A DNA stretch of 64,000 nt from positions 3,968,001 to 4,032,000 of the forward strand of contig CM038998.1 of assembly GCA_017499595.2 (NCBI GenBank), read 5' to 3'. Source of the DNA: Psilocybe cubensis. Lineage: Eukaryota. A program made the translations under genes and the position numbers. The notes under the pieces were generated by a model that had not been told where the DNA came from, made no database searches, and saw only the letters and a list, made by a program, of their open reading frames with translations. Of the stretch, positions 3,848 through 53,189 are shown piece by piece (within the stretch, counting starts at the first letter, position 1; every line of letters begins with the position of its first letter).

Positions 3848-5465
<1,618 letters not shown>

Positions 5466-28479: not shown

Positions 28480-28950
28480 GATCTCCAGTCTTCGACCAAC
28501 TCAGCCCTGTGTTAGGTTCAACCTGCGTTTTGAAGCTCCTAGATCTTCAGTGTGCTTGGTAGTTTCAATGTCGTCGTCCGAGCCGCCCGTACGTGGTAGG
28601 AAAAGTTTGAAGGTGAGGATTTGCAATCGTTTAAATAAAAAAAATTCAACTGAGGAGCGGAGGGAAATGAAAAGACACAGCTATAGTAACCACCAGAGCA
28701 GCCCCTTGTTGGACAGATTCAGGGTCATAAGTGGCGGGGGACGCTCGTCACAAGCTTTCCTTCCATGAGGAAATTTTAAACATGCGGAACATTTGGAAAC
28801 AGCGATGAAAGAGGTCCGCGATTCTAGCATAGGACGACAGGTCTCTGAGCTTTTCTACGTATACACGCTCTGAGTAAGTAATGTTCATGATGACCTTTAT
28901 TAATAAGACGCCCACAATGTAGCTAAGAGATGCAATGTATGGAAGCATGT
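28480..28950 (-). pseudogene. Degenerate 3' relic of a sixth FunK1-type kinase copy
   Basis: ORF 28748-28948 (MLPYIASLSYIV...MNITYSER...LRDLSSYARIADLFH) aligns by eye with MLPSISVLRYIV...MNIAYSER...LRDPLSYAIIVNLFH of the intact copies. 28500-28610 resembles their acidic/basic tail. Broken by stops and indels. Confidence 0.75.
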
Positions 28951-29201
28951 TATTTTTCAGGGCCCAATGCTCTCCATCATGATTGTCAGGCTCCTACTAA
29001 ATAGTAAGTCGCCGCTTTGATTGCATGCAAATGTATAACATTGAATCAACTAGTAATTTAATTTCTTTTCGACGTTTGGCCGAGGAGGAAGATTTGTTCC
29101 CACAATCTCCATTGCAGGAAATGGATATAGTGCATAAAATGATACAAAGTGAAGATATCAAAAGAGAGATTGAGGGCGTTATTTATCTCCATCAAGATGA
29201 A

Positions 29202-32200
29202 CTACGACCCCCCGGTTTTCGACCTAGTGCCCGACTTGAATTGACGCCCTGTCGTCAAAGTTCCTGGTGTTGGATTGTCTCCGGCATCTGAGCCACCGCC
29301 TGAGATAGGATCATCTTGCGTTTTCACGCGCTTACATCTTTGCCGGTCAAGAGTAGCTTCGATATCTTCGTTAGTCGGGCCTGGTCGAAAAGATTCTGAG
29401 GGTGCTGTCTGACCAATATTTGGATAGGGTCTCTTTCGACCTGGGATAAGAGAAGGAGCAACAGACACGGCTGGAGACCCTGGGGCGGTAGGGGCGTCCA
29501 TGGGTTCGACAGAGTTAGGGCCATCACCGGGGACGCTCGGTAGAAGAGGAGTGCCTTTGAAGGAATCGAGAAAATTCTGGAGTGGTTGGAAAGCGGAATG
29601 AAAGAGGTTTACAATGATAGCATAGGACAAAGGGTCTCTGAGCATATAACCCCTTTCACGTTCTGAATAAGCGATATTCATAGCTTCTCTGAGCGCGTCC
29701 ACAATGTACCTTAGAACTGAGATTGAAGGGAGCATGATACGTTGCAGATCTTGCGCGTTTTCGTCAGGATCCTCACAATAGGGCCGCAGAAAATTTAGCC
29801 TCGCAGAAGTAGGTACGTCGTTATGTTGAAAAATTTGTTTGGCCCACGTCCTGGAAGGTTGGTGGTCGACACGTGCAGTTAGAGACCACACTAAGACCCA
29901 CCAAAGCGACTCTAAATCATGTTGGAAGTTATAGACTACCGAGACAGCGGTCCGCTTGCGGTTCTTAGTCTGTTTCCGCTGGGTGAGATGTCTGAGCATT
30001 ACCTCCTTCAAGCCCCACACGCGCGATACTGCTTTGCTGTAGGTTTTTGTCTTAGGATAAAGATAGGTGTTTTGCATTATCTCGACAGGCATAAAGAAAG
30101 GAGTACCCTGGAATTTGGTTGAAACAGTAAGGCCAATAGAAGAGGAAAATAATAAAGTACCGTTTTGGGATCAACGCTACCTTCATGATCTTTAGGTAGC
30201 GGAAACTTCTTGGCATATTCAAAGTCTGACAGTTTAGCCCGCAAGACGGAGCCTACTTCATGGGCAAGAATGTTCCCCGAGCTTATATCTCTGTGTACCC
30301 AGCCAGCACAGTACAGGAGCGAAAGAGCTACAAAGTATACATAAGTAAATGTAGAAATTTAATCGAGGTTGGAGCTTACGAATAAGAGTTTGTTGGATCA
30401 CATCAAGCACCTCCCCCAAAGTCGGGAGATTACCCACGGGTTCGCAGACTTCTTTGAAGATGACGCGATATTGTTTACGGGGGGTAAATGTTCGCTTGCA
30501 TTGCTGTCCACTCTTTATAAAAGGTGTCGATCCCACCGATGGAATAGAATTTTCGTTCAAAGATGCGATCCTATTTGCATGGGCGTTCTGAAACAAGCGT
30601 GTGACGGGAGCACATCCCTCCAAAACAGCTTTGGATGGCTTGCCAGCATGATCACTTTCAATTTCGAGGAAATACTGTTTGTATTCGCCAGATTTAACGA
30701 GCTCGGCATTTCGCATCTTGATAGCATTGAGAGCATCCTGAGGAGAATCTTCAGGAGGATCCGATGCCAGGTTGTAATCTGGCTTATCGGGGTGACAGTA
30801 TTTTTCGATATCTGCAAAGATGGCCGTCTGGATCTCCTTTTCAGTGAGAGTATTTACGGAGAGCCAGACGTCTTTCAAGACGCAAGGCGGGCCAATTTTA
30901 TTGCCTTCAGAATCAACCCGATCGACCAACCATACACGCGCCATGCGACCAGAGATGTTGTTCGAGGGGTATTCAGAAAGTACCTTGACAGTGCGGTAGA
31001 ACTTGGCCGATTTCCCATCAGAACTGGGGATTTTGAAAGTGTACTGACGCTTTTTGCCTTCGACCAGAGTGACGTCGGGATTGTAGCCGAGTTCTTCGTC
31101 TGTTGCAAATAGAAATGATAGGAACACCTTGACAAGTAATCTGGGATTCTAAAGTGATTATTAAATCAGTAATGTTGGCCAATTCAAAAGAACCACACCA
31201 GCGTACCTCGACAAAGTTAAATTGTCTCGAAACAGCAGAATGAGAGCGACAGTGATACCACAGCGTCGCCTTATCGCCTTCAAACGTCATCTGAAACCAA
31301 TAAAAGTGAGAAATATTCCGTTTTGCAGAGTCTGTTTCTACGTACCCCATAGGTGAACATTCGCCGCACGTCATCGTTCATGATTTGAACATTTGCTGAT
31401 ACTACCCGACGGTTGTTCTTAAAGGAAAGGTCGGCAAAAAGCATGTGTAAAAGTGTTGCATAACACTTACTGAATCCCTGTCGGCGGCGGAGACGTTCTG
31501 CTCAATAGGTACAGCAATATACTTGGTGTGGAAATCACTTCCTCCATTGGAAAAGCAGGCATCTATCCTGCTTTTAGAGTTCCCTATATCCGATGAAATG
31601 ACTGCCTGCGGACAATGGAGATACTGGAAATTGTTGCGAGCCCTGCCGTCACATGTCTCGCTATAGCTCCCAATGGCATCAGCAATAGTCTTCAAGGGAG
31701 CAAATACTGTCTTTTCCACAGAGCCGTGGCTACCAGGCCGTTTCATGTAGTCGGTGAATCGAAGACCAGGAGTATCCGGGTACCCAACCGTCGGCACAAC
31801 TTCCGACAATACGGGGTGGCCTGTGTTGTCGTCAAGTTTATGAAGTGGGTTAATCCGTGCGCATCGTCTAGGCGTTATAGGAGCCTGTTTGGGACGGAAA
31901 CCCTCACCAGCGTCCCCATTAGGAGCATAATCCTTGCAGAGAAGTCTCAGGACACATTCTTCAACAGCTGCTTCTGAAGGCTCAAATGGAAGGTAATGCT
32001 TGAAGAAAACATCGACGCTGCACTCGATGAACTCGTCATTCATTTCTAATGCGATTTGTGACCGAAGGGTGGAAAGATTTTCGGTTGTATTATCCGTGCA
32101 ATTGGTTTGGGGCGCTTTCGGGGGTCTATATGAAGTCTTGTCATGCTGAAGAACCACACACCTCGGCTCATTGGAGTCGGCATCCACTTTTGTTTCCAAA

Positions 32201-32409
32201 GCAGCATCTGCGTAAATCTTGGATGCTGTGACTCCTTTAGCGCTTGTAGAGTCATTTGAGCCGTTGTTGATGGCGTGTTCTACCACAAAGCCTGCATCAG
32301 GGGTGGTGCTAGTATATGTAATTGTTGAAGGTGCGGCAGCAATGGCACCGTCGTGATTTAAACCTGTTGCAGACAACGTGCTGGTAGAGGTACCCTCAGA
32401 GGTAGACAT
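29202..32409 (-). CDS. Fungal-type protein kinase (FunK1/Pkinase_fungal), copy 1, head A + tail X
   Basis: MNDDVRRMFTYG|MTFEGDKATLWYHCRS, VLKDVW, GWVHRDISSGNIL, KLSDFEYAK, T|GTPFFMPVE and YNFQHDLESLWWVL. Introns are conserved with the other copies. Confidence 0.85.
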
Positions 32410-32954
32410 AGGAAAGAATGAACGGGAATATTACTGTTATGTGCTGGATACTTATTCAAGGGGAGAGGAGACGCGTAGAGTTGCCAGTGCCTGTTTGGTT
32501 TAGTCTGAATCCCGTGACGGCGCAAACCAGGTGTCAACGAAATTTCTCGGTGTTTCTTGCCTCCTCCGACAGCGAGACAGTGAAATACCGTTTATGCCCA
32601 CTTTCAACGTTCCAGTTCTAATCATACCACCACAATGTATTTTGTTGGTTTATCTGTATTGTCGTTTTAAGTCACTGCTCTGACTTCATGTCAATGTAAT
32701 AAACTAGCTGAGGTCCAGGCGGTCGTTTCAATGGGGATAAGAGAAGGAGCAACAGACACTCAGCAGGTTGGGTTTCTTCCTTCCAAGTCCCTTCGATATT
32801 TTCGCTTTATTGCAGCTAGAACACTATCTGTGTTGAAGTGGTTAGCTATTGGTAAGACCCTCAACCTATTCCATTTCAAACTAAAAAGCCACTAAATCAA
32901 CTTGTCCTAATGTACAGTCATTATTAACAACTTTCTACACTTCACATCCACTCG

Positions 32955-33955
32955 TTACTTGGCTTGCACATTCTTCCCTTCCTTAAAGAATTCAAGCAGT
33001 GTGTGCTTCCCGACAAAGAGGCGGCCTTTTGCAGCGGCCTCCGCATCATTAAACACAGCCTCTTCAGTCCCTGTAGCCACATCTGCGTCCAAGGCTGCCA
33101 ATAATTTGGCATAATCGGCTGGAGCCCCGACTTGGGTGTACAAGGCCGCTTGTTCTTCGATAGTGTTGCGTTTGTAAGTGATCGTTCGGCCCAGCACAGA
33201 AGATATGATTTTTGCAGCCTGTTTTCAGAGGGATGATATGATTAGCACCAGTAGATTGCTGACAAGTGCAAGAAACTCACATCTTCGTAGGTGAGGAGCT
33301 CGGGACCCACGACGAAGATACTGTCGTTTGGACTTTTCTCCGCTGTTAAACCCTCGAATACCACTTGGGAGATATCCTCTGTCGAGACGAAAGGTACTTT
33401 CCCATCTTGCGCCGCTGAGAATATAGTGCTGAAATTCGTGATGCCCAAGTTATCAAAATTCTCTACAGGTTCAAAGCGGGAGGCAATGAATATACATGAT
33501 TAAAATTTGTCACTATAGGAGAGAGAAACGATGTGTTGCTTACGAATGAACCAAGTAGGCCTCACTACCACAAAGTCGACACCAGCATCAATCAACTGCT
33601 GATGCACGACACCAGCCGGGAACGGCGAGTTCGCATCTGGCCCAACGACAGTGGCCGACATCAGCGCGAAGCGCTTCACACCTTTCGATATTGCAAGCTC
33701 GACGAACTTGGTGTGCAACGCGACATCGGTGCTCGCAGGCGGGCCGACGATGTACACCTGGTCGACCGGGGGATCAGCGGTGTCGAACGCGGCTTCGTGC
33801 GTCGATGCGTCGTTCCAGTCGAATTTGACGGCTTTGAATGGCGCGGGGGCGACCCCTGTGCGTGTCGCGATGAGCACTGGGTAGTTCGCGGCGTGCAGAA
33901 GCTTTGCGAGGCCCAGTCCAGTCCTGCCAGTTCCGCCTGTGATGAGAGTGGTCAT
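32955..33955 (-). CDS. NmrA-like NAD(P)-binding atypical SDR (EasG/agroclavine-dehydrogenase-like family), three exons
   Basis: TLITGGTGRTG Rossmann motif, VKFDWND, GVKRFALMSA, VVVRPTWF|IENF, DGKVPFVSTEDI, GPELLTYED. Two GT-AG introns near 33464-33544 and 33220-33280. Confidence 0.88.
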
Positions 33956-34047
33956 GGTCGTAGGTTTTAACGTTGATGATATTGCTTGGTTTGCTTGGAG
34001 GTAGGGGCTGATGAAGATGGGGTTTAAATTGGCTTAAGCCAGATGTA

Positions 34048-34054
34048 TTTTATA
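34048..34054 (-). promoter_or_regulatory. Candidate TATA box (TATAAAA) of the NmrA-like gene
   Basis: Minus strand reads GCTATAAAATAC about 95 bp upstream of the ATG at 33955. Confidence 0.45.
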
Positions 34055-34855
34055 GCTCGCGGAGTGTGAGGCAAGCACAACATTTGCGCGATCGCGTTTA
34101 TGCGATGACAAATTCATATATGGTTCCGTTCTCAACAAGCTTCCCTGTCGGTTGAATTGCTCGATAAGCACGTAGGCCATACGACTGCGAATTGCATGAT
34201 CTTGATAAAACAAACAAACAAGCAACACTTGAAATGGAAACTAAACATCGACCATAGATTCCGCATGCGCAGAAGAGCATTTTATGTTCGTCACAACGTT
34301 TCCTGTCATCCGTATGCAACTCGCAGTTTCGTGGCTGTTACAGTCTGTTACAGTACCCTTTGCATGGCGCTCCGAGATGCAGACCTCGACGTCCGACCCC
34401 GGGCCCTCACGCTCAATCAAATCAAAAAGGCTTACTCACCCATCAACAGTTACGTCGAATTGATAGGAGAAGGTTGAAGCTGCGGTGAGAGTTGCCCAAA
34501 GCTTACAGATGCATCAGGTACTAATGAGTAATTGAGGGTGGATAATTTTAGATTTATCGGACTAAATGTGGATACCGTAGATACAACCCTTAGGCAGATT
34601 AAGCGCTGAGGGTACTCAAATAACTCAACTTCAAAGTCAATTGCCAACCATGCCATTGCACATTGGGAAAAGTTCAAGAAAAAACTGAGATTAATTGAGA
34701 TGCCTGCAAAGGGAGGTGTTGATGAGCATGTTGTGCAGGGTCAACTTGATGTGAAGCAAACTTTATTGCAGGAAATGGATATAGCGCATAAAATGATACA
34801 AAGTGGCGATATCAAAAGAGAGATTGAGGGTGTTATCTATCTGCATCGAGATGAA

Positions 34856-37800
34856 CTACGACCTCCCAGTTTTCGACCGAGTGCCCGACTTGGATCGGCG
34901 CCCTGTCGTCGAATTTCCCGGTGCTGCATTGCCTCCAGCATTTGAACCGCCGCCTGCGTTAGGATCATCCTGCGTCTTGATGCGCTTAGATCTTTGCCGT
35001 TCCAGGGTAGCTTCTACGTCTTCGTCGACCGGGCCCGGTTGAAAAGATTCTGAGGGTGCTGTCTGACCAGTATTTGGATTGGGTCTCTTTCGACTGGGGA
35101 TAAGAGAAGGAGCAACAGACACTGACGGAGCCCCTGGGGCAGTAGTGACGTCAACGGGTTGGACAGAGTTAGGGCCATCAACGGGGGCGCTCGGTAGAAG
35201 AGGAATGGATTTCAAGTAGTCCAAAGAATTCTGGAGTGTTTGGAAAGCGAAATGAAAGAGGTTTACAATGATAGCATAGGACAAAGGGTCTCTGAGCATA
35301 TTACCGCTTTCACGCTTTGAATAATCGATATCCATAGCGTCTCTGAGCGCGTCCACAAGGTAGCTTAGAACTGAGATTGAAGGGAGCATGATACGTTGCA
35401 GATCTTCCACGTGTTCGTCAGGATCCCCACGATAGGGCCGCAGAAAATTTAGCCTCGCAGAAGTAAGTACGTCGTCATGTTGAAAAATATCGTTGGCCCA
35501 CATCCTGGAAGGTTGGTGGTCGACACGTGCAGTTAGAGACCACACTAAGACCCACCAAAGCGACTCTAAATCATGTTGGAAGTTATAGACTACCGGGGTA
35601 GCAGTCGGTTTGCCGTTCGTAGTCTGATTGTCCTGGGTATGATGCCTGAGAATTGCCTCCTTCAAGTTCCCAACGAGCGATATTACTTTGTTGTGGTTTC
35701 TCGCCTTAGTATGAAGATAGGAGTTTCGCATTATCTCAACAGGCATAAAGAAAGGAGTACCCTGGAATTTTGTTGAGACAGTAAGGCCAATAGAAGAGCA
35801 AAATAATAAAATACCGTTTTGGGATCAACGTTGCCTTCATGATCTTCAGGTAGCGGAAACTTCTTGGCATATTCAAGGTCTGAAAGTTTAGCCCGCAAGA
35901 CGGAGCCTACTTCATGGGCAAGAATGTTCCCCGAGCTTATATCTCTGTGTACCCAGCCAGCACAGTACAGGAGCGAAAGAGCTACAAAGTATACATGAGT
36001 AAATGTAGAAATTTAATCGAGGTTGGAGCTTACGAATAAGAGTTTGTTGGATCACATCAAGCACCTTCCCCAAAGTCGGGAGATCACCCACGGGTTGGCA
36101 GACTTCTTTGAAGATGACGCGATACTGTTTACGGGGGGTATATGTTCTAATGGAAGGCTGACGAGTCTTTGACAAACCTGTCGATCCCACCGGTCGAATG
36201 GAATTTTCGTTCAAAGATGCAATCCTATTTGCATCGGCGTTCTGAAACAAGCCTGTGACGGGAGTACATCCCTCCAAAACATCTTTGGATGGCTTGCCAG
36301 CATGATCACTTTCAATTTCGAGGAAATACTGCTTGTACTCGCCAGATTTAACGAGCTCGGCATTTCGCATCTTGATAGCATTGAGAGCAGCCTGAGGAGA
36401 GTCTTCAGGAGGATCCGATGCCAGGTTGTAATCTGGCTTATCGGGATGACAGTATTTTTCGATATCTGCAAAGATGGCCGTCTGGATCTCCTTTTCAGTG
36501 AGAGCATTTACGGCAAGCCAGACGTCTTTCAAGATGCACTGCGGGCCAATCTTGTTGCCTTCAGAATCAACCTGATCCACCAACCATACACGAGCCATAC
36601 GACCAGAAATGTTGTTCGAGCGATATTCAGAGAGAACTTTGACAGTGCGGTAGAACTTGGCCGATTTCCCATCAGAACTGGGGATTTTGAAAGTGTACTG
36701 ACGCTTCTTGCCTTCGACCAGAGTGACGTCGGGATTGTAGCCGAGTTCTTCGTCTGTTGCAAATAGAAATGATAGGAACACCTTGACAAGTAATTTCGGA
36801 TTCTAGAGATTATTAGATCAGTAATATTCATCAATTGAAAAGAAGCACACGAGCATACCTCGACAAAGCTGAATTGTTTCGAAATAGCAGAATGGGAGCG
36901 ACAGTGATACCAAAGTGTTGCCTCATCGCCTTCAAAGGTCATCTAAGGTCAATGGAGGTCAAATTCTTTCCATTTTTCAGAGTCAGTTCTTATATACCCC
37001 ATAGGTGAACATACGCCGCACGTCATCGTTCATAATTTGAACATTTGCCGATACTACCTGACGGTTGTTCTTGAAGAAAAAATTGGCTAAAAGCATGTGC
37101 AAAAGGTTGCATGACACTTACTGAATCTCTGTTGGCACCGGAGATCTTTTGCTCAATAGGTACAACAATATACTTGGTGTGTAGGTCACTCCCTCCATTT
37201 GAAAAGCAGGCATCTATCTTATTGTTTGAGCCCCTTATGTCCGACGAAATGATTGTATCCTGGCAATTCAGATACTGAAAACTGTTGCGAGTCCTCCCGT
37301 CACAGGTCTCGCTGTAGCCTCCGACGGCATCAGCGATAGACTTCAAGGGGGCAAATAACGTCTTCTCCACTGCCTCTTGTTTACTAGGGCGTTCCATATA
37401 GTCGGTGAATCGAAGACTCGCAGTGGTTTCCTCCAGTATGATTTCCGACAATATCGGCTCTTCTTCGTTATAGACAGGTTTGTGAAGCGTCTTTAAGCGT
37501 GCGGATCGTCTGAGTGGTTCTGCGGCCTGTTGGACACTGGGGCAGCCTTCAATAGCATCGTTGGTGGGAGCAGGATCCTTTCCAAGAAGTCTCAAGATAC
37601 ATTCTTCGACAGCTACTTCAGAAGGCTCGAATGGAAGGTAATGCTTCAAGAAAACCTCGACGCTGCACTCGACGAATTCGTTATTCATTTCTAAGGCAAT
37701 CTGTGATCGAAGACTGGTGAGTTTCTCAGTTTTTCCATCCGTGCGATTGGCTCGGGGTGTTTCTGAGGGTCTTTGAGATTTCTCGTCATGCTCAAGGATG

Positions 37801-38110
37801 AACCAGTAATCGTTTAAGTTACACACCTCGGCTTATTGGAGTTGGCATCAGCTGGTGGGTTATTGGAATTGGTATCAGCTGTTGTTGCCAAAGTACCATT
37901 TGCGTTAGTCTCGGATGCTGTTGCCCCTTCAGCGCTTGTGGAGGCAACTGAACCATTGTGGGTGCTAGGTTCTTCCGCAGATCCTGCATCAGGGGTTTTG
38001 CAAATAGTGCTGGCATCTGCAAATGAGGCAGGTGTGGCAGCAATGACGCTATCGTGATCTGAACTGGTTGCGGGCATGGCGTTGCTACAGTCACCGTTGG
38101 AGGTAGACAT
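34856..38110 (-). CDS. Fungal-type protein kinase (FunK1), copy 2, head B + tail Y
   Basis: Same kinase motifs (ILKDVW, HRDISSGN, SDLEYAK, GTPFFMPVE, HDLESLWW). N-terminus MSTSNGDCSN; full-length tail. Confidence 0.85.
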
Positions 38111-39463
38111 GGAGAGAAGAGTTAACGTGGGGGCGCTATTGTGCTGGATCCTGATGTAGGAGTAGTATCAGAACATAGGTTTGTTATAAAGGTAGAGGAG
38201 ATGTACAGACTTGGCAGCGCCATTTCAACGCATTCACCTGGTCTGTGACGGTGTTATAGCTACTTTCATATCGATAGGCCTACTATAGGTGATCAGTTGT
38301 TCGGATTGGACATTCACTCGAATTGGTGTTCGCTTACCAGCAAAAATTATAACTCCGAATCGTGCCGACCATACGATCGCTTATAGAAATGCCATGCCGC
38401 TTAGTAACTCAGATTGATGTCTATGATGGGAGGTGATGGGAAGTCGGTTTGGACATTCATTCGTACTACCCATTTCGCATTCGTTTTCTGTAAAAAATTT
38501 TTACTTTCATGCAGATAGTATATATTAGAGCGTATGTACCAATTTTTATGAGGAACGGAGGACAGCACCTCGCTGTTCACAATGAGCTCAAAATAGAAAC
38601 ATAGCCGAAATGACTCAGTTCAAAGTCCGCCTGTATGTGTATATTTTCATTTTAGGTCTACAACTGTAACATATTCTCACGGTATGTTCATTGTCTTCCC
38701 GGCAACTTCCCGGCTTGCTTCCGATCGTTTAGATCTAAAAATAGCGAAGAGACAATGAACCGAGGACTGTTCAATTCTTTTGAGAAAAATGCAATGATGG
38801 TTTAGGACAAACGAAACCATGTTAAGTGGAATAGAAAGTTATCGCTCTTCACGTTAAAACTTCATTGAACTTTTATCTAAGAGTTGTGCAGGTACTTAAC
38901 ACTAAAGTTATATCCCCATGAAGACCACGCTTTGGAGAACCCTTTCCTGGCCCAGTAGCCCGGGGGTCCTCAACTTAAGTCGGTGAGATGGAAATAATCA
39001 AAAGCTTTGAATTCATATTTGGCGTTTGAATGCTTCCATCAAAATGGTCCTGGCCTTGGGATTTCCATTGTCCTCCTAAGTCGCCGGCTCTGCTTTCATG
39101 CCAATACATGCGGAGAAAGATTGATTGCGTCTTTGTTCGAGGAGAGAAATTCGCATGCACCGTCGTCTGAATCACTATGAGCCCTGAGGTTTAGACATAG
39201 AAATGCTTTGGCTTATAACCGCTGAGAAAAAAGTGGTGCCATCGTCAATGAATTTATTGATTAACATGCTAGCTACCAAATAGTATAAGGTATTATGATA
39301 TATGAACACTGTAGAAGTACGGCCTGTAAAACCACGAGATATCAAAAGAGATATCGAGGGCGTTATCTATCTGCATCGAGATGAACTACGACCTCCCAGT
39401 TTTCGACCGAGTGCCCGACTTGGATCGGCGCCCTGTCGTCGAATTTCCTGGCGTTGGATTGCC

Positions 39464-42400: not shown

Positions 42401-42613
42401 CAAAGCAGCATCTGCGTAAATCTTGGATGCTGTGACTCCTTTATCGCTTGTAGAGTCATTTGAGCCGTTGTTGATGGCGTGTTCTACCACAAAGCCTACA
42501 TCAGGGGTGGTGCTGGTATATGTAATTGTTGAAGGTGAGGCAGCAATGGCACCATCGTGATTTAAACCTGTTACAGACAATGTGCTGGTAGAGGTACCCT
42601 CAGAGGTAGACAT
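39464..42613 (-). CDS. Fungal-type protein kinase (FunK1), copy 3, head A + tail Y, tail about 26 codons shorter than copy 2
   Basis: Kinase motifs intact (GTLFFMPVE variant). The 56-nt intron at 42310-42365 restores the frame. TGA at 39464-39466 where copy 2 reads Gly. Confidence 0.82.
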
Positions 42614-43043
42614 AGAAAAAAGAACGGGAATATTATTGTTATGTGCTGGATACTGATTCAAGGGGAGAGGAGACGCGTAGAGTTGCCAGTGCCCTTGTTT
42701 AGTCTGAATCCCGTGACTGTACCAACCAGGGGGCACCCACTGGAGCTTACCGAGAAAACAACCCCTCCCTGGAGCTTAACGCAGTGGCTGTGTTGCCGTG
42801 GGGCGATTACCACAACGTGATGGCAGTGTGACATCGTGAAATAACAAAGACATTAATACTGCTTGTTGAAGATCCTTGAGAAATACGATATATTTTAGTG
42901 TCCAGAATATGTCAAGCTGTGTTATATATGTCTACATAGGTCCTTCCTCTCTTTTGAGATGTCTCCACACAGATCAGTGATGGTGACATTAGTGTGACCA
43001 TCAGCGTTTGCCGCCCCGGCATTATAGCTCGCGGGGGGCATTA

Positions 43044-43929
43044 AAGGACCCTGGGCATTTGGCTCAGAGGACGTTTCAAAACGGGACAAAAATAACGACT
43101 GATTTTGAGCAAAATGTCGTTCCAGAAATACGGACAAGTTGCAGGACCGCCGAGGTCTAGTCTCGGCCTCCCATCCTCTTTCGGATCGGTTACCCAATAT
43201 GGGTAACCCATCGTAAGTTACCCATATTGGGTAACCGGATGGGAGGCCGAGACTAGCCGAGGTCGATCCACAAGCCGGACATATATTCGGATGACGACCA
43301 AAAAAATATAATCCAAAGGCTAGCGTATAGGTAAAATGTGTAAGTATTTTCCGCCTTTCGTCTTGCGTCAGGTTGGTGTTTCAAGCCACGGTGTGGCATT
43401 TCATTTTGCCCTTTATAAATCCTTAGTTCAAGAGAATCCGTCAAAATAACAACACAATCTAATGAAATTTTACACATTATGAATTGGGCTACTGTCGATC
43501 AGCTAACACCTTTCCTTCCATTCACTCTCCTCTATCATAACCCTTTGTCTGTCACTCCAACGGGTTTTGAGGCTCACGCGCAATATATCTCATCTTACAG
43601 AACACTGTTTGACGGAGTAGGAAGCATAAAAAGGCGATGAAAATGTCTTCAAAGCGAAATTTAGATAGTATTACATAGATTGTCGCATTTTACATTCGCA
43701 TTATACATTCATTTGTAGTTATATAGTGCTACCAGCAGCTTTTTTTCGATGATAGGTGTTCTCAAAATGGTTCTGATTGCGGGCGCAGCAGCGAAAAAAT
43801 CGATTTTTGAGCCTGTCCGGACACAAATTGGGCCTCTGGAGGGTCGTTCCCAAATTCCGGAGACGGACAAAAATCCCATAAATCGACCTTTTTTGGGAAC
43901 GTCCTCTGGGCCAAATGCCCAGGGTCCTT
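43044..43929. mobile_element. Non-autonomous DNA transposon (MITE-like), about 0.89 kb, with roughly 33-bp terminal inverted repeats
   Basis: The left end AAGGACCCTGGGCATTTGGCTCAGAGGACGTTTC matches the reverse complement of the right end AAGGACCCTGGGCATTTGGCCCAGAGGACGTTCC. GGGGCA occurs in both flanks. The paralogous empty site is at about 34051-34080. No transposase ORF. Confidence 0.8.
43158..43255. mobile_element. 98-bp fold-back mini-element nested in the TIR element, flanked by a 9-bp direct repeat
   Basis: Perfect 19-bp outer arms TAGTCTCGGCCTCCCATCC / GGATGGGAGGCCGAGACTA and 21-bp inner arms (43187-43207 / 43217-43237). GCCGAGGTC at both 43149-43157 and 43256-43264. Confidence 0.82.
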
Positions 43930-43932
43930 GGG

Positions 43933-44315
43933 GCAAGCACAACATTTGCGCGATCGCGTTTATGCGATGACAAATTCATATATTGTTCCGTTTTCAACAA
44001 GCTTCCCTGTCGGTTGAATTGCTCGATAAGCACGTAGGCCATAAAGACTGCGAATTGTGATAATTTTAGATCTATCGGACTGAATGTGGATACCGTAGAT
44101 ACTTGGACAGGTTAAGCGCTGAGGGTAGTCAAATTTCTTAACTTTAAAGTCTTTTCGATATAGCGGAGTGAATGTGGATACCGTAGATACCACCTTTAGG
44201 TAGATTAAGCGCTGAAGATACTCAACTTCAAGGTCAATTGCCAACCATGCCATTGCACATTGTGAAAAGTTCAAGAAAAAAATGAGATTAATTGAGATGC
44301 ATGCAAAGGGAGGTA
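43933..44315. repeat. Duplicated copy of the region upstream of the NmrA-like gene (about 34071-34195 and 34540-34718)
   Basis: Near-identical blocks GCAAGCACAACATTTGCGCGATCGCG...GACTGCGAATTG and GATAATTTTAGAT...GTCAATTGCCAACCATGCC...GCAAAGGGAGGT. Confidence 0.85.
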
Positions 44316-45140
44316 TGGGTATACTGTACAAAATAAGATGAAGGGTAGCTTAGTAGTGCTAATGCTAATGCTAAGTAGGCAGCGGTATAAATGCGATGAT
44401 GATCGATGACGGTAAAAACTTAAAAAAGAGAGAGGCGGATTTTAGTGACTATGAGATTCGAGTATCAGATCAATAGAGTAAAAATTAAGCGATATACAAG
44501 CAAGGAAAGGAAAGGAAGGAGAGTGTGGAATATTGTTCACAGGCGTCAAAAAAAAGAAGAAATGCGACGGAAGTAGAGGTTGGTATAATACAGACGTTTC
44601 TTACAATTTTGCGGATCGACGAAAGCAAAAAGAAGCTAAAAAATGAGAGGCGATGAGGTGATCTGAATCCAATGGCATGGCAATTAAAGAAAAAAAGAAA
44701 AGGAGAAAACAAATGATTGTACATGTGCATGAAGCGTCGAAACAAAAAAGCAAAGGGAAGAAAAAAGGAGAAAAACAGACCAAGCCCGGAAATTCACAAC
44801 CCCACACCACGATCCGCATCAACATCCACATTCACCTCCACATTCACCTCCACATCAACAATCCACATCCAACATCCACCACTCACTCCCACGAACTAAC
44901 AACATCCCAGTCAACGCACTCGTAAAGCTCGACCGCGTGCTATAATACTCCCCCGAAAAACTCGAGTCGGAAAATTACACGTCGTTCGAGCTGCTGACCA
45001 CGCTGAGCACCGAGTTGCGCTGGGAATGGATAGTACGGAACGACGTTGGCGAGGGCGAGGGCGACGGGAACGGGGATGGAGACAGTGCTGGAAGAGTCTG
45101 CGGCGTAGTCATATTCATAGCCGTAGTCGTAGTCTTTGTG
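44272..45140 (-). pseudogene. Duplicated 3' end (about the last 85 codons, stop at 44883) and downstream region of the large low-complexity gene; source about 52560-53460
   Basis: Collinear near-identity, e.g. CACTCCCACGAACTAACAACATCCC...TAATACTCCCCCGAAAAACTCGAGTCGG...CACGCTGAGCACCGAG. No 5' part, and a 1-bp deletion near the stop. Confidence 0.88.
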
Positions 45141-45323
45141 GCAGTTCCTGTAAAACCATGCGAAATGAAAAGAGAGATTGAGGGCGTTATTTATCTACAT
45201 CGAGATGAACCACGACCCTCCAGTTTTCGACCTAGTGCCCGACTTGGATCAGTGTCCTGCCGCCGAATTTCCCGGTGCTGGATTGCCTCCAGCATTTGAG
45301 CGGCCGCCTGAGTTAGGACCAGC

Positions 45324-48300
45324 CTACATTTTAATGCGCTTAGGTCTTTGCCGTTTCAGGGTAGCTTCTACGTCTTCGTCAGCCGGGCCTGGTTTAAAAG
45401 ATTCTGAGGGTGCCGTCTTCCCAATGTTTGGATTGGGTCTCTTACAACCAGCAAAAAGTGAGGGAGCACTGGGCACTGCTGTAGCGGCATCAGCAGGTTG
45501 AACAGAGTTGGGGCCATCAGCGGGAATGTTCATCACAAGAGGTGTTTCCTCCCAAGGGGAGCCGGAGACACTCTCGAGTAGTTGAAAACAAAAATGGAAG
45601 CGGTCTACAATGATAGCATAAGATAGCGTGTCTCTGAGTGTGTCGTCCCTTGCTCGTCCTGAATACGCAATATTCATGGCAGATCTTATGTAGTCCACCA
45701 TGAGATGCATAAATGAGATTGATGGGAGCATGATATCTTCAAGCGAGATGCTGGACAAAGCCCTCAGAAAGCGTATCCTCTCAGGAGTAGGCACGACATC
45801 ATGTTGAAAAACTTCGTTGGCCCAGGTCCTGGAAGGTTGGTGGCTGACACGTGCGGTTAGAGACCACACTAAAACCCACCAAAGCGACTCGAGATCATGT
45901 TGAAAGTTATAGACAACCGAGGTATAAGACATACGCGAAGTATTTTTCCGGGGGGCACCAAGCTCGGCGAGTTGTTTTTTGGCGACAAAAAGAGACGGAT
46001 CGCGAATTGCAAATGCTATGTCGTTTTTGTTGTCGATTCGATTATATATATAAACGTCTTGCATTATTTCGATAGGCATGAAAAAAGGAGTACCCTGGAA
46101 TTTTGTTGAGACAACAAGACCCATAGAAGAATGAAATAACAAAGTACCGTTTTGGCATCACCGTTGGCTTTATGATCTTCAGGTAGAGGGAACTTCTTGG
46201 CATATTCAAGGTCTGACAATTTGGCCCGCAAGACGCTGCCTCCTTGATGAGCAAGAATATTCCCCGAGCTTATATCTCTGTGTACCCAGCCAGCACAGTA
46301 CAGGAGCGAAAGGGCTACGAAGCTATACATGAGTAAATGTAGAAATTGAATCGAGGTTGAAGCTTACGTATGACAGTTTGTTTAAGTATATTAAGCACCT
46401 TCCCCAAAGTAGGCAGATCGCCCACAGCCTGGCAGACTTCTTTGAAGATGACGCGATACTGTTTACGGGGGGTATATGTTCGCTTGTGTTGCTGTCCACT
46501 GTTTATAAAAGGTGTCGATCCCACCGGTCGAATAGAATTGTCATTCAAAGATGCAATCCTATCTGCATCGGCGTTCTGAAACAAGCCTGTGACGGGAGTA
46601 CATCCCTCCAAAACATCTTTGGAGGGCTTGCCAGCATGATCACTTTCAATTTCGAGGAAATACTGCTTGTACTCGCCAGACTTAACGAGCTCGGCATTTC
46701 GCATCTTGATATTATTGAGAGAGGCCTCGGGAGAGTCTTCAGGAGGATCCAATGCCAAGTTGTAATCTGGCTTGTCGGGGTGACAGTATTTCTCAATATC
46801 TGCAAAGATGGCCGTCTGGATCTCCTTTTCAGTGAGAGCATTTACGCCAAGCCAGACGTCTTTCAAAACACATTGCGGGCCAATCTTGTTGCCTTCAGAA
46901 TCAACCCGATCGACCAACCATACACGCGCCATGCGACCAGATATGCTGTTCGAGGGGTATTCAGAAAGTACCTTGACAGTGCGGTAGAACTTGGCCGATT
47001 TCCCATCAGAACTGGTGATTTTGAAGGTGTACTGACGCTTCTTGCCTTCGACCGGAGTGACATTGGGATCGTAGCCGAGTTCTTCGTCTGTTGCAAACAG
47101 AAATGATAGGAACACCTTGACGAGTAATTTTGGATTCTACAGAGATTATTATATCAGTAATGTTCATCAATTCAAAAGAACCACACGAGCATACCTCGAT
47201 AAAGCTGAATTGTTTCGAAACAGCAGAATGGGAGCGACAATGATACCAAAGTGTTGCCTCATCGCCTTCGAAGGTCATCTAAGGTCAATGGAAGTCAAAT
47301 TCTTTCCATTTTTCAGAGTCAGTTCTTATATACCCCATAGGTGAACATACGCCGCACGTCATCGTTCATAATTTGAACATTTGCCGATACTACCTGACGG
47401 TTGTTCTTGAAGAAAAGATTGGCTAAAAGCATGTGCCAAAGGTTGCATGACACTTACTGAATCTCTGTTGGCACCGGTGACCTTTTGCTCAATAGGTACA
47501 ACAATATACTTGGTGTGTAGGTCACTCCCTCCATTTGAAAAGCAGGCATCTATCTTATTGTTTGAGCCCCTTATGTCCGATGAAATGATCGTATCCTGGC
47601 AATTCAGATACTGAAAACTGTTGCGAACCCTCCCGTCACAGGTCTCACTGTACCCTCCGACGGCATCAGCGATAGACTTCAAGGGAGTAAATAATGTCTT
47701 TTCTGCTGCCTCTTCATTACTGAGGCATTCCATATAGTCGGTGAATCGAAGAGCAGTGGTTTCCTCTAGTATAATTTCCCACAATATCGGCTCTTCTTTG
47801 TTATAGAGAGGTTGATGAAGCGTCTTGAAGCGTGCGGATTGTCTGAGTGGTTCTGCGGCCTGCTGGAGACTGGGGCAGCCTTCAATAGCATCGTTGGTGG
47901 GAGCAGCATCCTTTCCAAGAAGTCTCAAGATACATTCTTCGACAGCTACTTCAGAAGGTTCAAATGGAAGGTAATGCTTCAAGAAAACCTCGACGCTGCA
48001 CTCGACGAATTCGTTATTCATTTCTAAGGCAATCTGTGATCGAAGGGTGGTGAGTTCCTCAGTTTTTCCATCCGTGCGATTGGCTCGGGGTGTTTCTGAG
48101 GGTCTTTGAGATTTCTCGTCATGCTCAAGGATGAACCAGTAGTCGTATAAGTTACACACCTCGGCTTATTGGAGTTGGCATCAGCTGTTGGCTTATTGGA
48201 GTTGGTATCAGCTGTTGTTGCCAAAGTACCATTTGCATTAGCCTCGGATGCTGTTGCCCCTTCGGCGCTTGTGGAGGCGACTGAACTATTGTGGGTGCTA

Positions 48301-48443
48301 GGTTCTTCCGTAGATCCTGCAACAGGGGTTTTGCAAATAGTGCTGGCATCTGCACCTGAGGGAGGTGTGGCACCAACGACGCTGTCGTGATCTGAACTGG
48401 TTGCGGGCATGGCGTTGATAGAGTCACCGTTGGAGGTGGACAT
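45324..48443 (-). CDS. Fungal-type protein kinase (FunK1), copy 4, head B + tail Z, tail truncated by TAG
   Basis: LSLLYCAGWVHRDISSGNILAH...AKLSDLEYAKK in ORF 46064-46330; GTPFFMPIE and HDLESLWW. N-terminus MSTSNGDSIN; ends KRIKM*. Confidence 0.83.
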
Positions 48444-49257
48444 GGAGAGAAGAGTCAACCTGGGGGCGTTATTGTGCTGGATCCTGATGTAGGAGTAGTA
48501 TTAGAACATAGTTGGCAGTGCCATTTCAACGCGTTCACCTGGCCCGTGACGGTGCAACAAATTCTCACGGTATGTTCACTGTCTTCCCGGCAAATTCCCG
48601 GCTTGCTTTCAATCAAAAATAGTGAAGAGACCAATGGACCGAAAACTGTTCAATTTTTTCTGAGGAAAATGCAATGATGGTTTAGGACAAATGAAACCAT
48701 GATAAGTGGAATAAAAAATTATTGCTCTTCACGTTAAAACTTCATTGAACTTTTATTTAGTAGTTGTACAGATACTTAACACTAATTATAAATTTATACC
48801 TCCATGAAGACCGCGCTTTGGAGTGAACCCTTTCCTGGCCCAGTAGCCCGGGGGTCCTCAACTTAAGTCAGTGAGATATAAACAATCAACAGCGTTGAAT
48901 TGATCTTTGGCATTTGAATGCTTCCATCAAAATGGGCCGTGGCGTTGGGTTTTCTATTGCCCTCCTAAGTCGCTGGCTTTGCTTTCATGCCAATACATGC
49001 AGAGTAACTTTAGTACTGAGAAAAAAGTTGTGCCATCGTCAATTAATTTATTGATTACCATACTAGCTACCAAACAATATAATGTATTATGATTTATGAA
49101 CACTGTAAAAGTATGGCCTGTAAAACCGTGAGATATCAAAAGAGAGATTGAGGGCGTTATCTATCTGCGTCGAGATGAACTACGACTCCCCAATTTTCGA
49201 CCTAGTGCCCGACTTGGATCGGCGCCCTGTCGTCGAATTTCCTGGCGTTGGATTGCC

Positions 49258-52200
49258 TCAGGCATTTGAGCCACCGCCTAAGTTAAGATCATCCTGCGTC
49301 TTGATGCGCTTAGTTCTTTGCCATTCCAGGGTAGCTTCTACGTCTTCGTCAGCCGGGCCTGGTTTAAAAGATTCTGAGGGTGCCGTCTTCCCAATGTTTG
49401 GATTGGGTCTCTTACAACCAGCAAAAAGTGAGGGAGCACTGGGCTCTGCTGTAGCGGCATCAGCAGGTTGAACAGAGTTGGGGTCATCAGCGGGGATGTT
49501 CATCACAAGAGGTGTTTCCTCCCAAGGGGAGCCGGCGACACTCTCGAGTAGTTGAAAACAAAAATGGAAGCGGTCTACAATGATAGCATAAGATAGCGTG
49601 TCTCTGAGTGTGTCGTCCCTTGCACGTTGTGAATACGCAAGATTCATGGCAGATCTTATGTAGTCCACCATGAGATGCATAAATGAGATTGATGGGAGCA
49701 AGATATCTTCAAGCGTGATCCTGGACAAACCCCTCAGAAAGCGTATCCTCTCAGGAGTAGGCACGACATCATGTTGAAAAACTTGGTTGGCCCAGGTCCT
49801 GGAAGGTTGATGGCTGACACGTGCGGTTAGAGACCACACTAAAACCCACCAAAGCGACTCGAGATCATGTTGAAAATTATAGATCACCGAGTTATAAGAC
49901 ATATCGTTCTGCGAAGTATTTTTCCTGGGGGCACCAAGCTGGGCGAGTTGTTGTTTGGCGACAAAAAGAGACGGGTCGTGAATTGCAAATTCTATGTCGT
50001 CATTGTTGTCGATTCGATTATATATATAAAATTCTTGCATTATTTCGATAGGCATGAAAAAAGGAGTACCCTGGAATTTTGTTGAGACAACAAGACCCAT
50101 AGAAGAGTGAAATAACAAAGTACCGTTTTGGCATCACCGTTGCCTTTATAAGCTTCAGGTGGAGGAAACCTCTTGGCATATTCAAGGTCTGACAATTTGG
50201 CCCGCAAGACGCTGCCTTCTTGATGAGCAAGAATATTCCCCGAGCTGATGTCTCTGTGTACCCAGCCAGCACAGTACAGGAGCGAAAGGGCTACAAAGGT
50301 ATATATGAGAAAGTGTAGAAACTCAATCGAGGTTGAAGCTTACGTATAACAGTTTGTTTAAGTATATTAAGCACCTTGCCCAAAGTAGGCAGATCGCCCA
50401 CAGCCTGGCAGACTTCTTTAAAGATGACGCGATATTGTTTCCGGGGGGTAAATGTTCGTTTGTGTTGCTGTCCACTCTTTATAAAAGGTGTCGATCCCAC
50501 AGGTTGAATAGAATTTTCGTTCAAAGATGCAATCCTATCTGCATCGGCGTTCTGAAACAAGCCTGTGACGGGAGTACATCCCTCCAAAACATCTTTGGAT
50601 GGCTTGCCAGCATGATCACTTTCAATTTCGAGGAAATACTGTTTGTACTCTCCAGATCTAACGAGCTCAGCATTTCGCATCTTGATATTATTGAGAGAGG
50701 CTTCGGGAGAGTCTTCAGGAGGATCCAATGCCAAGTCGTAATCTGGCTTGTCGGGGTGACAGTATTTCTCAATATCTGCAAAGATGGCCGTCTGGATCTC
50801 TTTTTCAGTGAGAGCATTTACGGAGAGCCAGACGTCTTTCAAGACACATTGCGGGCCAATTTTGTTGCCTTCAGAATCAACCCGATCGACCAACCATACA
50901 CGCGCCATGTGACCAGAAATGTTGTTCGAGGGGTATTCAGCAAGTACCTTGACAGTGCGGTAGAACTTGGCCGATATCCCATCAGAACTGGGGATTTTGA
51001 AAATGTACTGACGCTTCTTGCCTTCGACCGGAGTGACGTTGGGATCGTAGCCGAGTTCTTCGTCTGTTGCAAATAGGAATGATAGGAACACCTTGACGAG
51101 TAATCTGGGATTCTAGAGTGATTATTAAATCAGTAATGTTGGCCAATTCAAAAGAAGCACACAAGCGTACCTCGACAAAGTTAAATTGTCTCGAAACAGC
51201 AGAATGAGAGCGACAATGATACCACAGCGTTGCCTTATCGCCTTCAAACGTCATCTGAAACCAATAAAAGTGAGAAATATTTCGTTTTGCAGAGTCTGTT
51301 TCTACGTACCCCATAGGTGAACATTCGCCGCACGTCATCGTTCATGATTTGAACATTTGCTGATAATACCCGACGGTTGTTCTTAAAGGAAAGGTTGGCA
51401 AAAAGCATGTGTAAAAAAACGCGTTGCATCATACTTACTGAATCCCTATTGGCGGCGGAGACGTTCTGCTCAATAGGTACAGCAATATACTTGCTGTGTA
51501 AATCACTTCCTCCATTGGAAAAGCAGGCATCTATCCTGCTTGTAGAGTTCCCTATATCCGATAAAATGACTGTCTGCGGACAATGGAGATACTGGAAATT
51601 GTTGCGAGCCCTGCCGTCACACGTGTTGCTATAGCTCCCAACGGCATCAGCAATAGTCTTCAAGGGAGCAAATACTGTCTTTTCCACAGAGCCGTGGCTA
51701 CCAGGCCGTTTCATGTAGTCGGTGAATCGAAGACCAGGAGTATCCGGGTACCCAACCGTCAGCACAACTTCCGACAATACGGGGTGGCCTGTGTTGTAGT
51801 CAAGTTTATGAAGTGGCTTGATGCGTGCGGATTGTTTAGGCGTTGCAGGAGCCTGTTCAGGACTAGGAAAATTATCAACAGCGTCGCCAATGGGAGAAGT
51901 ATCCTTGCAGAGAAGCTTCAAGATGCATTCTTCAACAGCTGCTTCTGATGGCTCAAACGGAAGGTAATGCTTGAAGAAAACATCGACACTGCACTCGATG
52001 AACTCGTCTTTCATTTCTAATGCAATTTGTGACTGAAGAATGGAAAGATTTTCGTTTGTATTATCCGCGCAATTGGTTTGGGGCGTTTCCGAGCGTCTAC
52101 TGAAGTCTTGTCACGCTGAAGGAAGAAAGAGCAATGGTTGAAGCCACACACCTCGGCTCATTGGAGTCGGCATCCACTTTCGTTGCCAAAGCAGCATCTG

Positions 52201-52399
52201 CGGAAATCTTGGATGCTGTGACTCCTTTAGCGCTTGTAGAGCCATTTGAGCCGTTGTTGATGGCGTGCTCTACCACAAAGCCTGTATCAGGGGTGGTGCT
52301 AGTATATGTAATTGTTGAAGGTGCGGCAGCAGTGGCACCATCGTGATTTAAACCAGTTACAGACAACGTGCTGGTAGAGGTACCCTCAGAGGTAGACAT
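49258..52399 (-). CDS. Fungal-type protein kinase (FunK1), copy 5, head A + tail Z
   Basis: Kinase motifs intact. The 55-nt intron at 52097-52151 removes the apparent stop and keeps the frame (EPR|RSETPQ). Ends GGGSNA* like copy 3. Confidence 0.83.
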
Positions 52400-52804
52400 A
52401 GAAAAGAATGAACGGGAATATTATTGTTATGTGCTGGATACTGATTCAAGGGGAGAGGAGACGCGTAGGAGTTGCTAGTGCCTGTTTGAACCCCTTGTTT
52501 AGTCTGAATCCCGTGACGGCGCCAATGACACTTGATCGACCCATCACATTGCTGAAAGCTCAACAAAAATAAGATTAATTGAGATGCATGCAAAAAGAGC
52601 TATGGGTATACTGTACAAGATAAAATGAGGGGGTAGCTAGTGCTAATGCTAATGCCAATACTAATGCTAATGCTAAGTAGCAGCGGTATAAATGCTATGA
52701 TGATCGATGACGGTAAAAAGAGAGAGAGAGACGGATTTTAGTGACTATGAGATTCGAGTATTAGATCAATAAAGTAAAAATTAAGCGATAAACAAGCAAG
52801 GAAC

Positions 52805-52836
52805 GGAAAGGAAAGGAAAGGAAAGGAAAGGAAAGG
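52805..52836. repeat. (GGAAA)n pentanucleotide microsatellite
   Basis: About six units here versus about two at the paralogous site near 44504-44515. Confidence 0.85.
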
Positions 52837-53189
52837 AAGGAGAGTGTGGGATACGGTTCATACGCGTCAAAAGAAAAAAAAAAAGAAGAAATGCGACGAC
52901 GGAAGTAGAGGTTGGTATTGGTATAATACAGACGTTTCTTACAATTTTGCGGATTGACGAAAGCAAAAAGAAAGCCAAAAAATGAGAGGCGGTGAGGTTA
53001 TCTGAATCCAATGGCACGGCGATTAAAGAAAAAAAAAGGAAAAGGAGAAAACAAATGATTGTACATGTGCATGAAGCTTCGAAACAAGAAAGCAAAGCGA
53101 AGAAAAAAAGGAGAAGACACAGACAAAGCACGGAAATTCACAACACCACACCACGATCTGCACCAACATCCACATCCAACATCCACCAC

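Follow-up and report, generated by a model that had tools for sequence, protein, structure and literature searches.

FunK1, a family with no known function, ranks among the largest families of kinases in mushroom-forming fungi. In the founding description of the family, by Stajich et al. in 2010 (PNAS), the paralogs of Coprinopsis reportedly lie in highly recombining chromosome regions. One comparative report describes independent FunK1 expansions in Paracoccidioides and Coccidioides, enriched in nonsyntenic regions (PMC3203195), and another gives a significant expansion in mushroom-forming fungi, in which the family makes up 4 to 33% of the kinome (bioRxiv 10.1101/349894). Here we analyze an array of five FunK1 genes of Psilocybe cubensis in which the 5' parts (heads, types A and B) and the 3' parts (tails, types X, Y, and Z) group differently. 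The array lies in a window of 64,000 nucleotides (nt) (GenBank assembly GCA_017499595.2, contig CM038998.1, positions 3,968,001 to 4,032,000 of the forward strand); all positions below count from the first letter of this window. As an earlier note, made from the letters alone, had stated, the five kinase genes share one strand, all being minus, between 29202 and 52399; the start that it gave for the array, 28480, falls about 700 nt past the c1 stop codon. The annotated P. cubensis proteins of all five genes agree with the minus strand of the window at every letter, and the central exon of c3 is 100% identical to JR316_0001357. The coding sequences are as follows (aa, amino acids):

29202-32409, minus strand: c1, FunK1 kinase gene JR316_0001354, 966 aa; A head, X tail, c2-like 3' flank
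34856-38110, minus strand: c2, FunK1 kinase gene; B head, Y tail
39464-42613, minus strand: c3, FunK1 kinase gene JR316_0001357, 940 aa; A head, Y tail
45324-48443, minus strand: c4, FunK1 kinase gene JR316_0001358; B head, Z tail
49258-52399, minus strand: c5, FunK1 kinase gene JR316_0001359, 936 aa; A head, Z tail

The re-assortment of heads and tails in this array is real and statistically overwhelming. The 5' parts (promoter and exons 1 to 4) form two deep lineages, A in c1, c3, and c5 and B in c2 and c4, which agrees with the N termini that the earlier note had read (MSTSEGTSTST and MSTSNGD, respectively), and the promoter-proximal flanks group by head type as well. The 3' parts also form two deep lineages, Z in c4 and c5 and X/Y in c1, c2, and c3. 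In a five-way genomic alignment of c1 to c5, to which all column positions refer, c1, c3, and c5 are 80 to 98% identical over columns 300 to 1600 and c2 and c4 77 to 98% (87 to 98% from column 400), with 50 to 88% between the groups. Over columns 2700 to 3400, identity is 90 to 98% for c2-c3, 89 to 97% for c4-c5, and 81 to 94% for c1 to c2 or c3, versus 50 to 76% between the XY and the Z copies. The informative sites are distributed accordingly: 240 of the 248 that unite c2 with c4 lie in columns 0 to 1799 and none in columns 1800 to 3599, the other 8 being in the poorly aligned 3' flank, while columns 2000 to 3599 hold 190 of the 195 that unite c4 with c5. The maximum-likelihood (ML) tree of the 5' part joins c2 and c4 with a support of 100, against the A copies together, and that of the 3' part is (c1,(c2,c3)99,(c4,c5)100). 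Neither part accepts the tree of the other, with log-likelihood differences of 611, 123, and 472 and approximately unbiased (AU) test p values of 8e-8, 1.5e-7, and 3e-5.

Three tail types had been distinguished beforehand, and their sequences are indeed found: YL(H/Y)TKARNHNKVISLVG in c2 and c3, YIYNRIDN... in c4 and c5, and a variant of its own in c1. The c1 variant, X, is not a third deep type but the sister of Y, with 81 to 97% nt identity to it in 200-nt windows versus 50 to 72% for Y and Z; at the protein level, X and Y tails are 73 to 76% identical (24 to 27% different) and Y and Z tails 47 to 54%. A scheme of three deep tail types was rejected on these identities, the ML tree, and the protein comparison. 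Therefore, c1 and c3 share one combination at the deep level, and the idea that no two genes share a combination is correct only when X is set apart from Y. All four deep head-by-tail combinations occur among the five genes.

Introns and synonymous sites group the genes in the same way, and we therefore ascribe the grouping to exchange and not to a rate artifact. Distances (K) in introns 1 to 4 are 0.04 to 0.06 within a head type and 0.31 to 0.33 between types; those in introns 5 and 6 are 0.03 to 0.08 within a tail group and 0.12 to 0.18 between groups. Similarly, synonymous divergence (dS) is 0.59 to 0.64 between A and B heads and 0.05 to 0.13 within a head type, and 0.66 to 0.71 between XY and Z tails and 0.016 to 0.10 within a tail lineage. 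In the center of the genes, dS is only 0.11 to 0.30. Parts of the paralogs thus give incongruent trees that match the grouping at silent sites, and the A/B and XY/Z splits are about equally old (dS of about 0.6 to 0.7).

Mosaicism extends to three further paralogs on the same contig, g1366, g1367, and g1374, which were compared as proteins only. While g1374 pairs an A head with a Z-like tail (Z', 74 to 77% to Z) and g1367 a B-like head (B') with a Z tail, g1366 has a head and a tail of its own (C-W). Head and tail trees that include these three are incongruent (AU p ≤ 2e-6), and the eight paralogs of the contig hold at least four head and at least four tail variants, differently paired. Their central exon is 84 to 100% identical among the eight, and the nearest protein of another species reaches 41 to 43%; therefore, among the proteins of the database searched, the subfamily is specific to P. 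cubensis.

The change of grouping takes place where it had been predicted, in the central exon: sites diagnostic of A or B end 7 nt into exon 5 (c3 41325), the exon that starts NP(R/K)LLVKVFLSFLFATDEELGY. The switch zone, located at the start of exon 5 and bounded by the last of these sites and by the first that separates XY from Z, occupies the same alignment columns in every gene:

30882-31141, minus strand: switch zone of c1
36536-36795, minus strand: switch zone of c2
41066-41325, minus strand: switch zone of c3
46870-47129, minus strand: switch zone of c4
50846-51105, minus strand: switch zone of c5

In c3, XY/Z-diagnostic sites start at 41066 and are regular from 40991, and deep divergence begins near the close of exon 6, at about 40375. 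A rough segmentation by site likelihoods, with 15 topologies, placed the main break at roughly column 1905. The calls that this segmentation made within XY were not used, as they conflict with the segment ML tree and as a single set of branch lengths was imposed on the entire alignment. Exons 5 and 6 also contain short patches with other groupings, namely c1 and c2 against c3, c4, and c5 (columns 1756 to 1824), c1, c4, and c5 against c2 and c3 (columns 1921 to 1945 and 2344 to 2396), and, at scattered sites, c1 and c5 against the rest; these show that there are several further small exchange tracts. The sharp A/B boundary at the start of exon 5 and these patches bear out the proposal that the conserved central exons are a site of exchange.

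The exchanged segments correspond to parts of a kinase. Membership of the genes in the FunK1 family is confirmed by the match of the c1 central exon to Pkinase_fungal (PF17667; 44.2 bits, gathering cutoff 24.1) and by the precomputed PF17667 domain on all eight full-length paralogs of the contig; the exon 6 and exon 7 pieces give subthreshold matches to PF17667 at succeeding profile positions, as fragments should. The catalytic motifs are kept in all five genes, as had been claimed, including the Lys of (V/I)LKDVW, TEKE, HRDISSGN, and SD(L/F)EYAK. K445, E456, and D644 do not vary across 51 family members, in which H621, R622, D623, and N628 are nearly invariant; we take these motifs to supply the β3 Lys, the αC Glu, the HRD Asp, the Asn, and the DFG-equivalent Asp, following general knowledge of kinase subdomains. 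The AlphaFold2 model of c3 (mean predicted local distance difference test score, 71.1; predicted template modeling [TM] score, 0.72) is disordered at residues 1 to 98, 148 to 189, 542 to 570, 699 to 718, 778 to 783, and 858 to 940. Foldseek matches this model in the PDB to Sky1p/SRPK1, VRK1/2, and TTBK1/2 (E values of 5e-6 to 4e-5), with target TM scores of 0.28 to 0.58 overall, 0.35 to 0.58 for Sky1p/SRPK1, VRK, and TTBK, and 0.28 to 0.31 for IRE1. By sequence and model, the five paralogs are predicted to adopt a protein kinase fold with intact catalytic residues.

Each gene has three modules. The head module (promoter, exons 1 to 4, and introns 1 to 4; lineage A or B) encodes the disordered N terminus and an N-terminal domain. 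The conserved center module (exons 5 and 6) extends through the kinase N-lobe as far as the catalytic and DLE loops. The tail module (exon 7; XY or Z) encodes the remaining C-lobe with the hypervariable loop between subdomains VIII and IX, as well as the disordered C terminus.

How did this arrangement arise? A unit of about 8.3 kb, consisting of a B gene, a spacer (S), an A gene, and a flank (F), is duplicated in tandem, and the array is c1 plus this duplication. The elements concerned are the following:

34806-45133: unit 1, which carries an extra ~1.5 kb at 42730-44256
45147-53441: unit 2
38665-39118: spacer S' between c2 and c3, homolog of S (blastn, 86% over 465 nt)
48553-49007: spacer S between c4 and c5, homolog of S'
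44256-45133: F1, relic copy of the 0.9-kb flank, on the 3' side of c4 (blastn, 81.6% over 942 nt to F2)
52545-53441: F2, flank upstream of c5, which continues into the 3' end of the minus-strand open reading frame (ORF) at 53190-56156
42730-44256: extra stretch of ~1.5 kb upstream of c3, missing upstream of c5

Neutral Jukes-Cantor distances are 0.106 between S' and S and 0.097 between F1 and F2, and in the heads, c2-c4 and c3-c5 have a dS of 0.127 and 0.126, respectively. Since these values are concordant, they indicate one duplication event with a neutral divergence of about 0.10 to 0.13. F1 stops 14 nt short of the c4 3' flank, whose homology with c2 and c5 starts at 45147 to 45162; by abutting this flank, F1 marks the junction of the tandem duplication (45133 to 45147).

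Within each unit, the tails are closer than the duplication divergence (dS of 0.016 for c2-c3 and 0.06 for c4-c5), though Y and Z are old, which indicates later conversion between neighbors. The tract is well delimited in c3, which is c5-like (84 to 97%) from column 300 to about column 1900, c2-like (93 to 100%) over columns 2000 to 3300, and c5-like again (88 to 91%) over columns 3500 to 3700, so that a c2-like stretch of about 1.5 kb (columns ~1900 to 3500) is enclosed by c5-like sequence on both sides. In c4, the 3' boundary of the tract is unclear, as the homology ends there. Gene c1 combines an A head and an A promoter with a Y-like tail and a c2-like 3' flank.

Much of the history can be read from the array. 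On the simplest account, the cluster grew by segmental duplication, the ~8.3-kb unit of B gene, S, A gene, and F being copied in tandem. Interlocus (ectopic) gene conversion, or unequal exchange, through the conserved central exons would then have re-patterned the cluster. Acting on neighbors about 1 kb apart, it probably made the 3' parts within each unit alike, yielding B-Y, A-Y, B-Z, and A-Z, and c1 would be an additional recombinant or duplicate. As a by-product, promoter and N-terminal modules would be re-paired with C-lobe modules that probably set substrate docking, a re-pairing that selection may or may not use. In all, we consider it probable that ordinary block duplication and neighbor gene conversion explain the mosaic, with no need for a dedicated diversity machine.

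Several observations fit this explanation less well. The head introns of c2-c4 and c3-c5 have a K of 0.042 (about 220 nt each), below the ~0.10 of S and F; perhaps the heads, too, underwent conversion once the unit had been duplicated, or so few nucleotides may mislead. The XY/Z boundary is a gradient without a sharp edge, and the 37 minimum recombination events (Hudson-Kaplan Rm) among the five paralogs were rejected as an event count, being inflated by multiple hits among diverged paralogs. Several histories fit as to the direction and number of conversions, because A-Z-like (g1374) and B-Z-like (g1367) genes exist elsewhere on the contig. In the contigs of four sequencing runs, compared with positions 38600 to 43600 only, none bridges head and tail, the longest pieces being 555 to 607 nt. 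Finally, the ratio of replacement to silent substitution rates (ω) in comparisons of recent tail pairs, 1.4 to 2.6, could mean that selection uses the re-assortment, something not predicted by a purely passive origin.

This last point concerns the C-lobe part that follows GTPFFMP.EIM (aa 691 to 880). There, ω of the recent pairs is 1.81 (c1-c2), 1.36, 2.63 (c2-c3), and 0.90, and elsewhere it is 0.29 to 0.61 (head) and 0.21 to 0.38 (center). Replacement and silent changes number 56:10, 52:12, 18:2, and 22:7 in aa 691 to 880 and, with pairs in the same order, 133:99, 56:40, 116:96, and 124:102 in head and center together, a significant excess for the C-lobe part (Fisher p values of 2e-5, 0.003, 0.002, and 0.045). 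An ω above 1 is not significant in any pair for aa 691 to 880 (one-sided Fisher p values of 0.08 to 0.69), and the c1-c2 bootstrap interval, 1.04 to 4.40, is the only one that excludes 1. The replacement excess fits either relaxed constraint or diversifying selection; the tail is either the least constrained or the most diversified part of the gene. Variability within it peaks in the loop that separates subdomains VIII and IX, which is disordered in the model (residues 699 to 718) and, by a consensus of 51 sequences, differs widely in the family at large. In kinases generally, the region between these subdomains faces the substrate.

The earlier note had gone further and proposed a diversifying locus for nonself recognition, with somatic incompatibility as a candidate role. 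Under this explanation, the cluster would be a selected generator of diversity (for allorecognition, somatic incompatibility, or defense), each new head/tail pairing being a new specificity. The presence of all four deep combinations in only five genes, the variants and pairings among the eight contig paralogs, the tail ω values of c1-c2 and c2-c3, and the position of the greatest variability in a predicted disordered surface loop are all in line with it. So is the inclusion of FunK1 among the positively selected genes of Schizophyllum commune (PMC9156946). The sequencing runs add one contig, in run X8, whose Y tail, mostly with c2-like states, runs into a c5-like intron 5 (1 mismatch in 30), a junction missing from the window. 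It may be a sign that another strain has a different mosaic, or it may be chimeric, being a single short-read contig that passes through a conserved exon. Against recognition, the ω values above 1 lack significance and relaxed constraint yields the same pattern; the loop between subdomains VIII and IX, variable throughout the family, is not special to this cluster; and the neighbors are housekeeping genes (Vps4, major facilitator superfamily [MFS] transporter, and proline dehydrogenase). Pfam scans of 25 ORF pieces (9 plus 16, a subset of the window's ORFs) gave no HET, NACHT/STAND, or HeLo domain. A single segmental duplication and neighbor conversion suffice without selection and account for the arrangement, leaving the recognition proposal unsupported apart from a nonsignificant ω and a doubtful contig and, in our judgment, unlikely.

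In a broader formulation, which we regard as doubtful, the cluster would serve recognition or adaptive signaling and be continually re-assorted under selection, conversion through the conserved core repeatedly giving promoter and N-terminal modules new partners among the rapidly evolving docking modules of the C-lobe. If re-assortment were selected in this way, strains would carry differing mosaics, as the X8 contig hints. In a bolder variant, each unit may be a cognate pair of A and B kinases whose C-lobes are kept matched by conversion.

An assembly artifact appears highly improbable, whether two haplotypes of a dikaryon were joined inside genes or placed one after the other so as to mimic a duplication. 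With a K of ~0.1, the two units could in principle be haplotypes that have diverged strongly, and the absence of a bridging contig noted above (in a stretch that excludes the unit junction) would suit such an artifact. Against it, the copies differ throughout, with 18 replacement and 2 silent changes between the c2 and c3 tails and 22 and 7 between those of c4 and c5, and none is another copy read twice. In the switch zone, c2, c3, c4, and c5 each have private substitutions (patterns 1345|2, 1245|3, 1235|4, and 1234|5). The A/B boundary falls at the same nucleotide in all five genes, unlike random misjoins, while the ~1.5-kb insert of unit 1 and its truncated relic of the neighbor's 3' end fit a real tandem duplication. 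The window also lies within a contig of 4,675,579 bp. A high-fidelity (HiFi) assembly of P. cubensis is described with a read N50 of 13.9 kb and only 15,963 variants on self-mapping (PMC8220353). This read length exceeds every gene here, and stitched haplotypes would be unlikely should the window come from that assembly.

Twelve of the 14 sequencing runs listed, from four studies, contain part of the stretch around c3, and none is recorded as RNA. Two studies (runs X1 and X5, one of which may be the source sample) yield pieces that match c3-specific sequence without a difference, which also speaks against an artifact. As to polymorphism among strains, runs sharing one organism label (X5 to X8) contain 0.27 to 0.54 of the stretch's 31-mers, and the contigs compared with positions 38600 to 43600 differ by 0 to 3%; these values are confounded by cross-matching of paralogs and come without a control region. 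In run X10, one contig skips exactly intron 1 of c3 (42310 to 42365, GT..AG on the gene strand), and this joint is missing from three DNA runs, a hint that c3 is expressed.

That no exchange took place, heads and tails only seeming re-assorted through uneven rates or convergence under selection, has a probability close to negligible: the most divergent parts are indeed disordered or loop regions, which are fast in any protein, but introns 1 to 4 separate the head types, as given above, dS is ~0.6 between and 0.05 to 0.13 within heads and ~0.68 versus 0.016 to 0.10 for tails, and the promoter-proximal flanks track head type.

Block duplication followed by conversion between neighbors, the explanation that we favor, leaves some features of the array to be described. 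Homology upstream of c3 and c5 ends at 42730 and 52525, respectively, and the F repeat begins at 44256 and 52545. Within the extra stretch that this leaves upstream of c3, word depth in three DNA runs is several-fold higher at 43109 to 43275, and several contigs break off at 43075 to 43217. In DNA run X8, an opposite-strand joint goes from 43075 to 43600. The two ORFs of the insert that were scanned gave no Pfam match. Part of 42730 to 44256 looks like a dispersed repeat or a transposon remnant.

With harmonized seven-exon models, all five genes have open frames with a single terminal stop, and their introns are 36 to 58 nt long with GT..AG ends, except for one deposited 179-nt intron in c2. 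Three deposited models (c1, c2, and c4) look imperfect and are corrected here. That of c2 lacks exon 3 (37069 to 36998), though the exon is intact, identical to c4 exon 3 at 72 of 72 nt and flanked by AG and GT. Deposited intron 7 of c4 (45829 to 45879; 51 nt, in frame) is probably not a real intron; the reading frame runs on through it, and the residues that it removes are conserved in all paralogs. Intron 1 of c1 (32126 to 32161), also in frame, is only 36 nt long, a 20-nt deletion having shortened it in comparison with its counterparts. Genes c3, c4, and c5 stop 26 to 38 codons before c1 and c2 (stops at 39464 to 39470, 45324 to 45330, and 49258 to 49264) and have thereby lost the basic C-terminal tail (...GRQFKSGTRSKTGGS); the early stops of c3 and c5 are at the same place, and that of c4 is earlier still.

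One further gene lies inside the array:

32942-34033, minus strand: NmrA-like/NAD(P)-binding gene between c1 and c2, assigned by Pfam on the ORF at 33500-34033

This ORF matches NAD_binding_10 (4.9e-8), Epimerase, and NmrA, and same-strand ORFs adjoin it at 33242 to 33499 and 32955 to 33224. In Schizophyllum commune, FunK1 and NmrA families are described as coexpanded (PMC9156946). Upstream (240 to 26423), the window contains a Vps4-type AAA ATPase (3879 to 4875), an MFS transporter (21951 to 22505), and a proline dehydrogenase (24136 to 25011). On the other side, at 53190 to 60112 on the minus strand, are two long ORFs of 988 and 1,308 aa with a GC content of 0.56 to 0.60 and runs of Ser, Ala, Thr, and Gln; the 1,308-aa ORF, the one of the pair that was scanned, matches nothing in Pfam. 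Part of the 3' end of the 988-aa ORF was copied as F1 during duplication of the kinase unit. Pfam scans of several flanking ORFs gave no match. By these scans, the setting of the array is not obviously transposon-rich or subtelomeric.

The cluster amounts to a natural domain-swap series, in which one conserved core is joined to two N-terminal modules and several C-lobe modules. It brings out which parts of a FunK1 kinase vary (the disordered N terminus, the VIII-IX loop, the stretch that follows helix F, and the C-terminal tail) and how the family can grow, by segmental duplication and then conversion between neighbors. Whole-gene trees of such families mix histories. Tandem arrays with a conserved core tend toward such duplication and conversion.

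Set beside known systems, the cluster belongs to the same PF17667 family as the FunK1 expansions of Agaricomycetes and Onygenales and shares their species-specific multiplication; unlike the present analysis, those reports, in their available parts, count genes and build whole-gene trees without head/tail mosaics. Our literature search, partly by title and abstract, found no published account of FunK1 head/tail mosaics or of FunK1 gene conversion. Plant NLR clusters and primate KIR and MHC genes resemble the cluster in their tandem same-strand paralogs, duplication units, mosaic genes, and incongruent trees, as well as in exchange via conserved stretches and in variable parts that face ligands or substrates. 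They differ in having known recognition roles, allelic hyperpolymorphism, and significant positive selection, whereas ω above 1 is not significant here. In fungi, concerted evolution of the WD repeats in het-d, het-e, and the NWD family gives new specificities. These genes are likewise fungal and paralogous and recombine among highly similar repeated units; in their case, the units are short internal repeats in STAND proteins with HET or NACHT domains. In the P. cubensis cluster, such domains were not found in the scanned ORFs, and whole kinase modules, promoter plus N terminus on one side and C-lobe on the other, are exchanged. The mechanism that we favor is not a new one but the familiar process of tandem paralog clusters, of which this array is a clean and well-resolved example.

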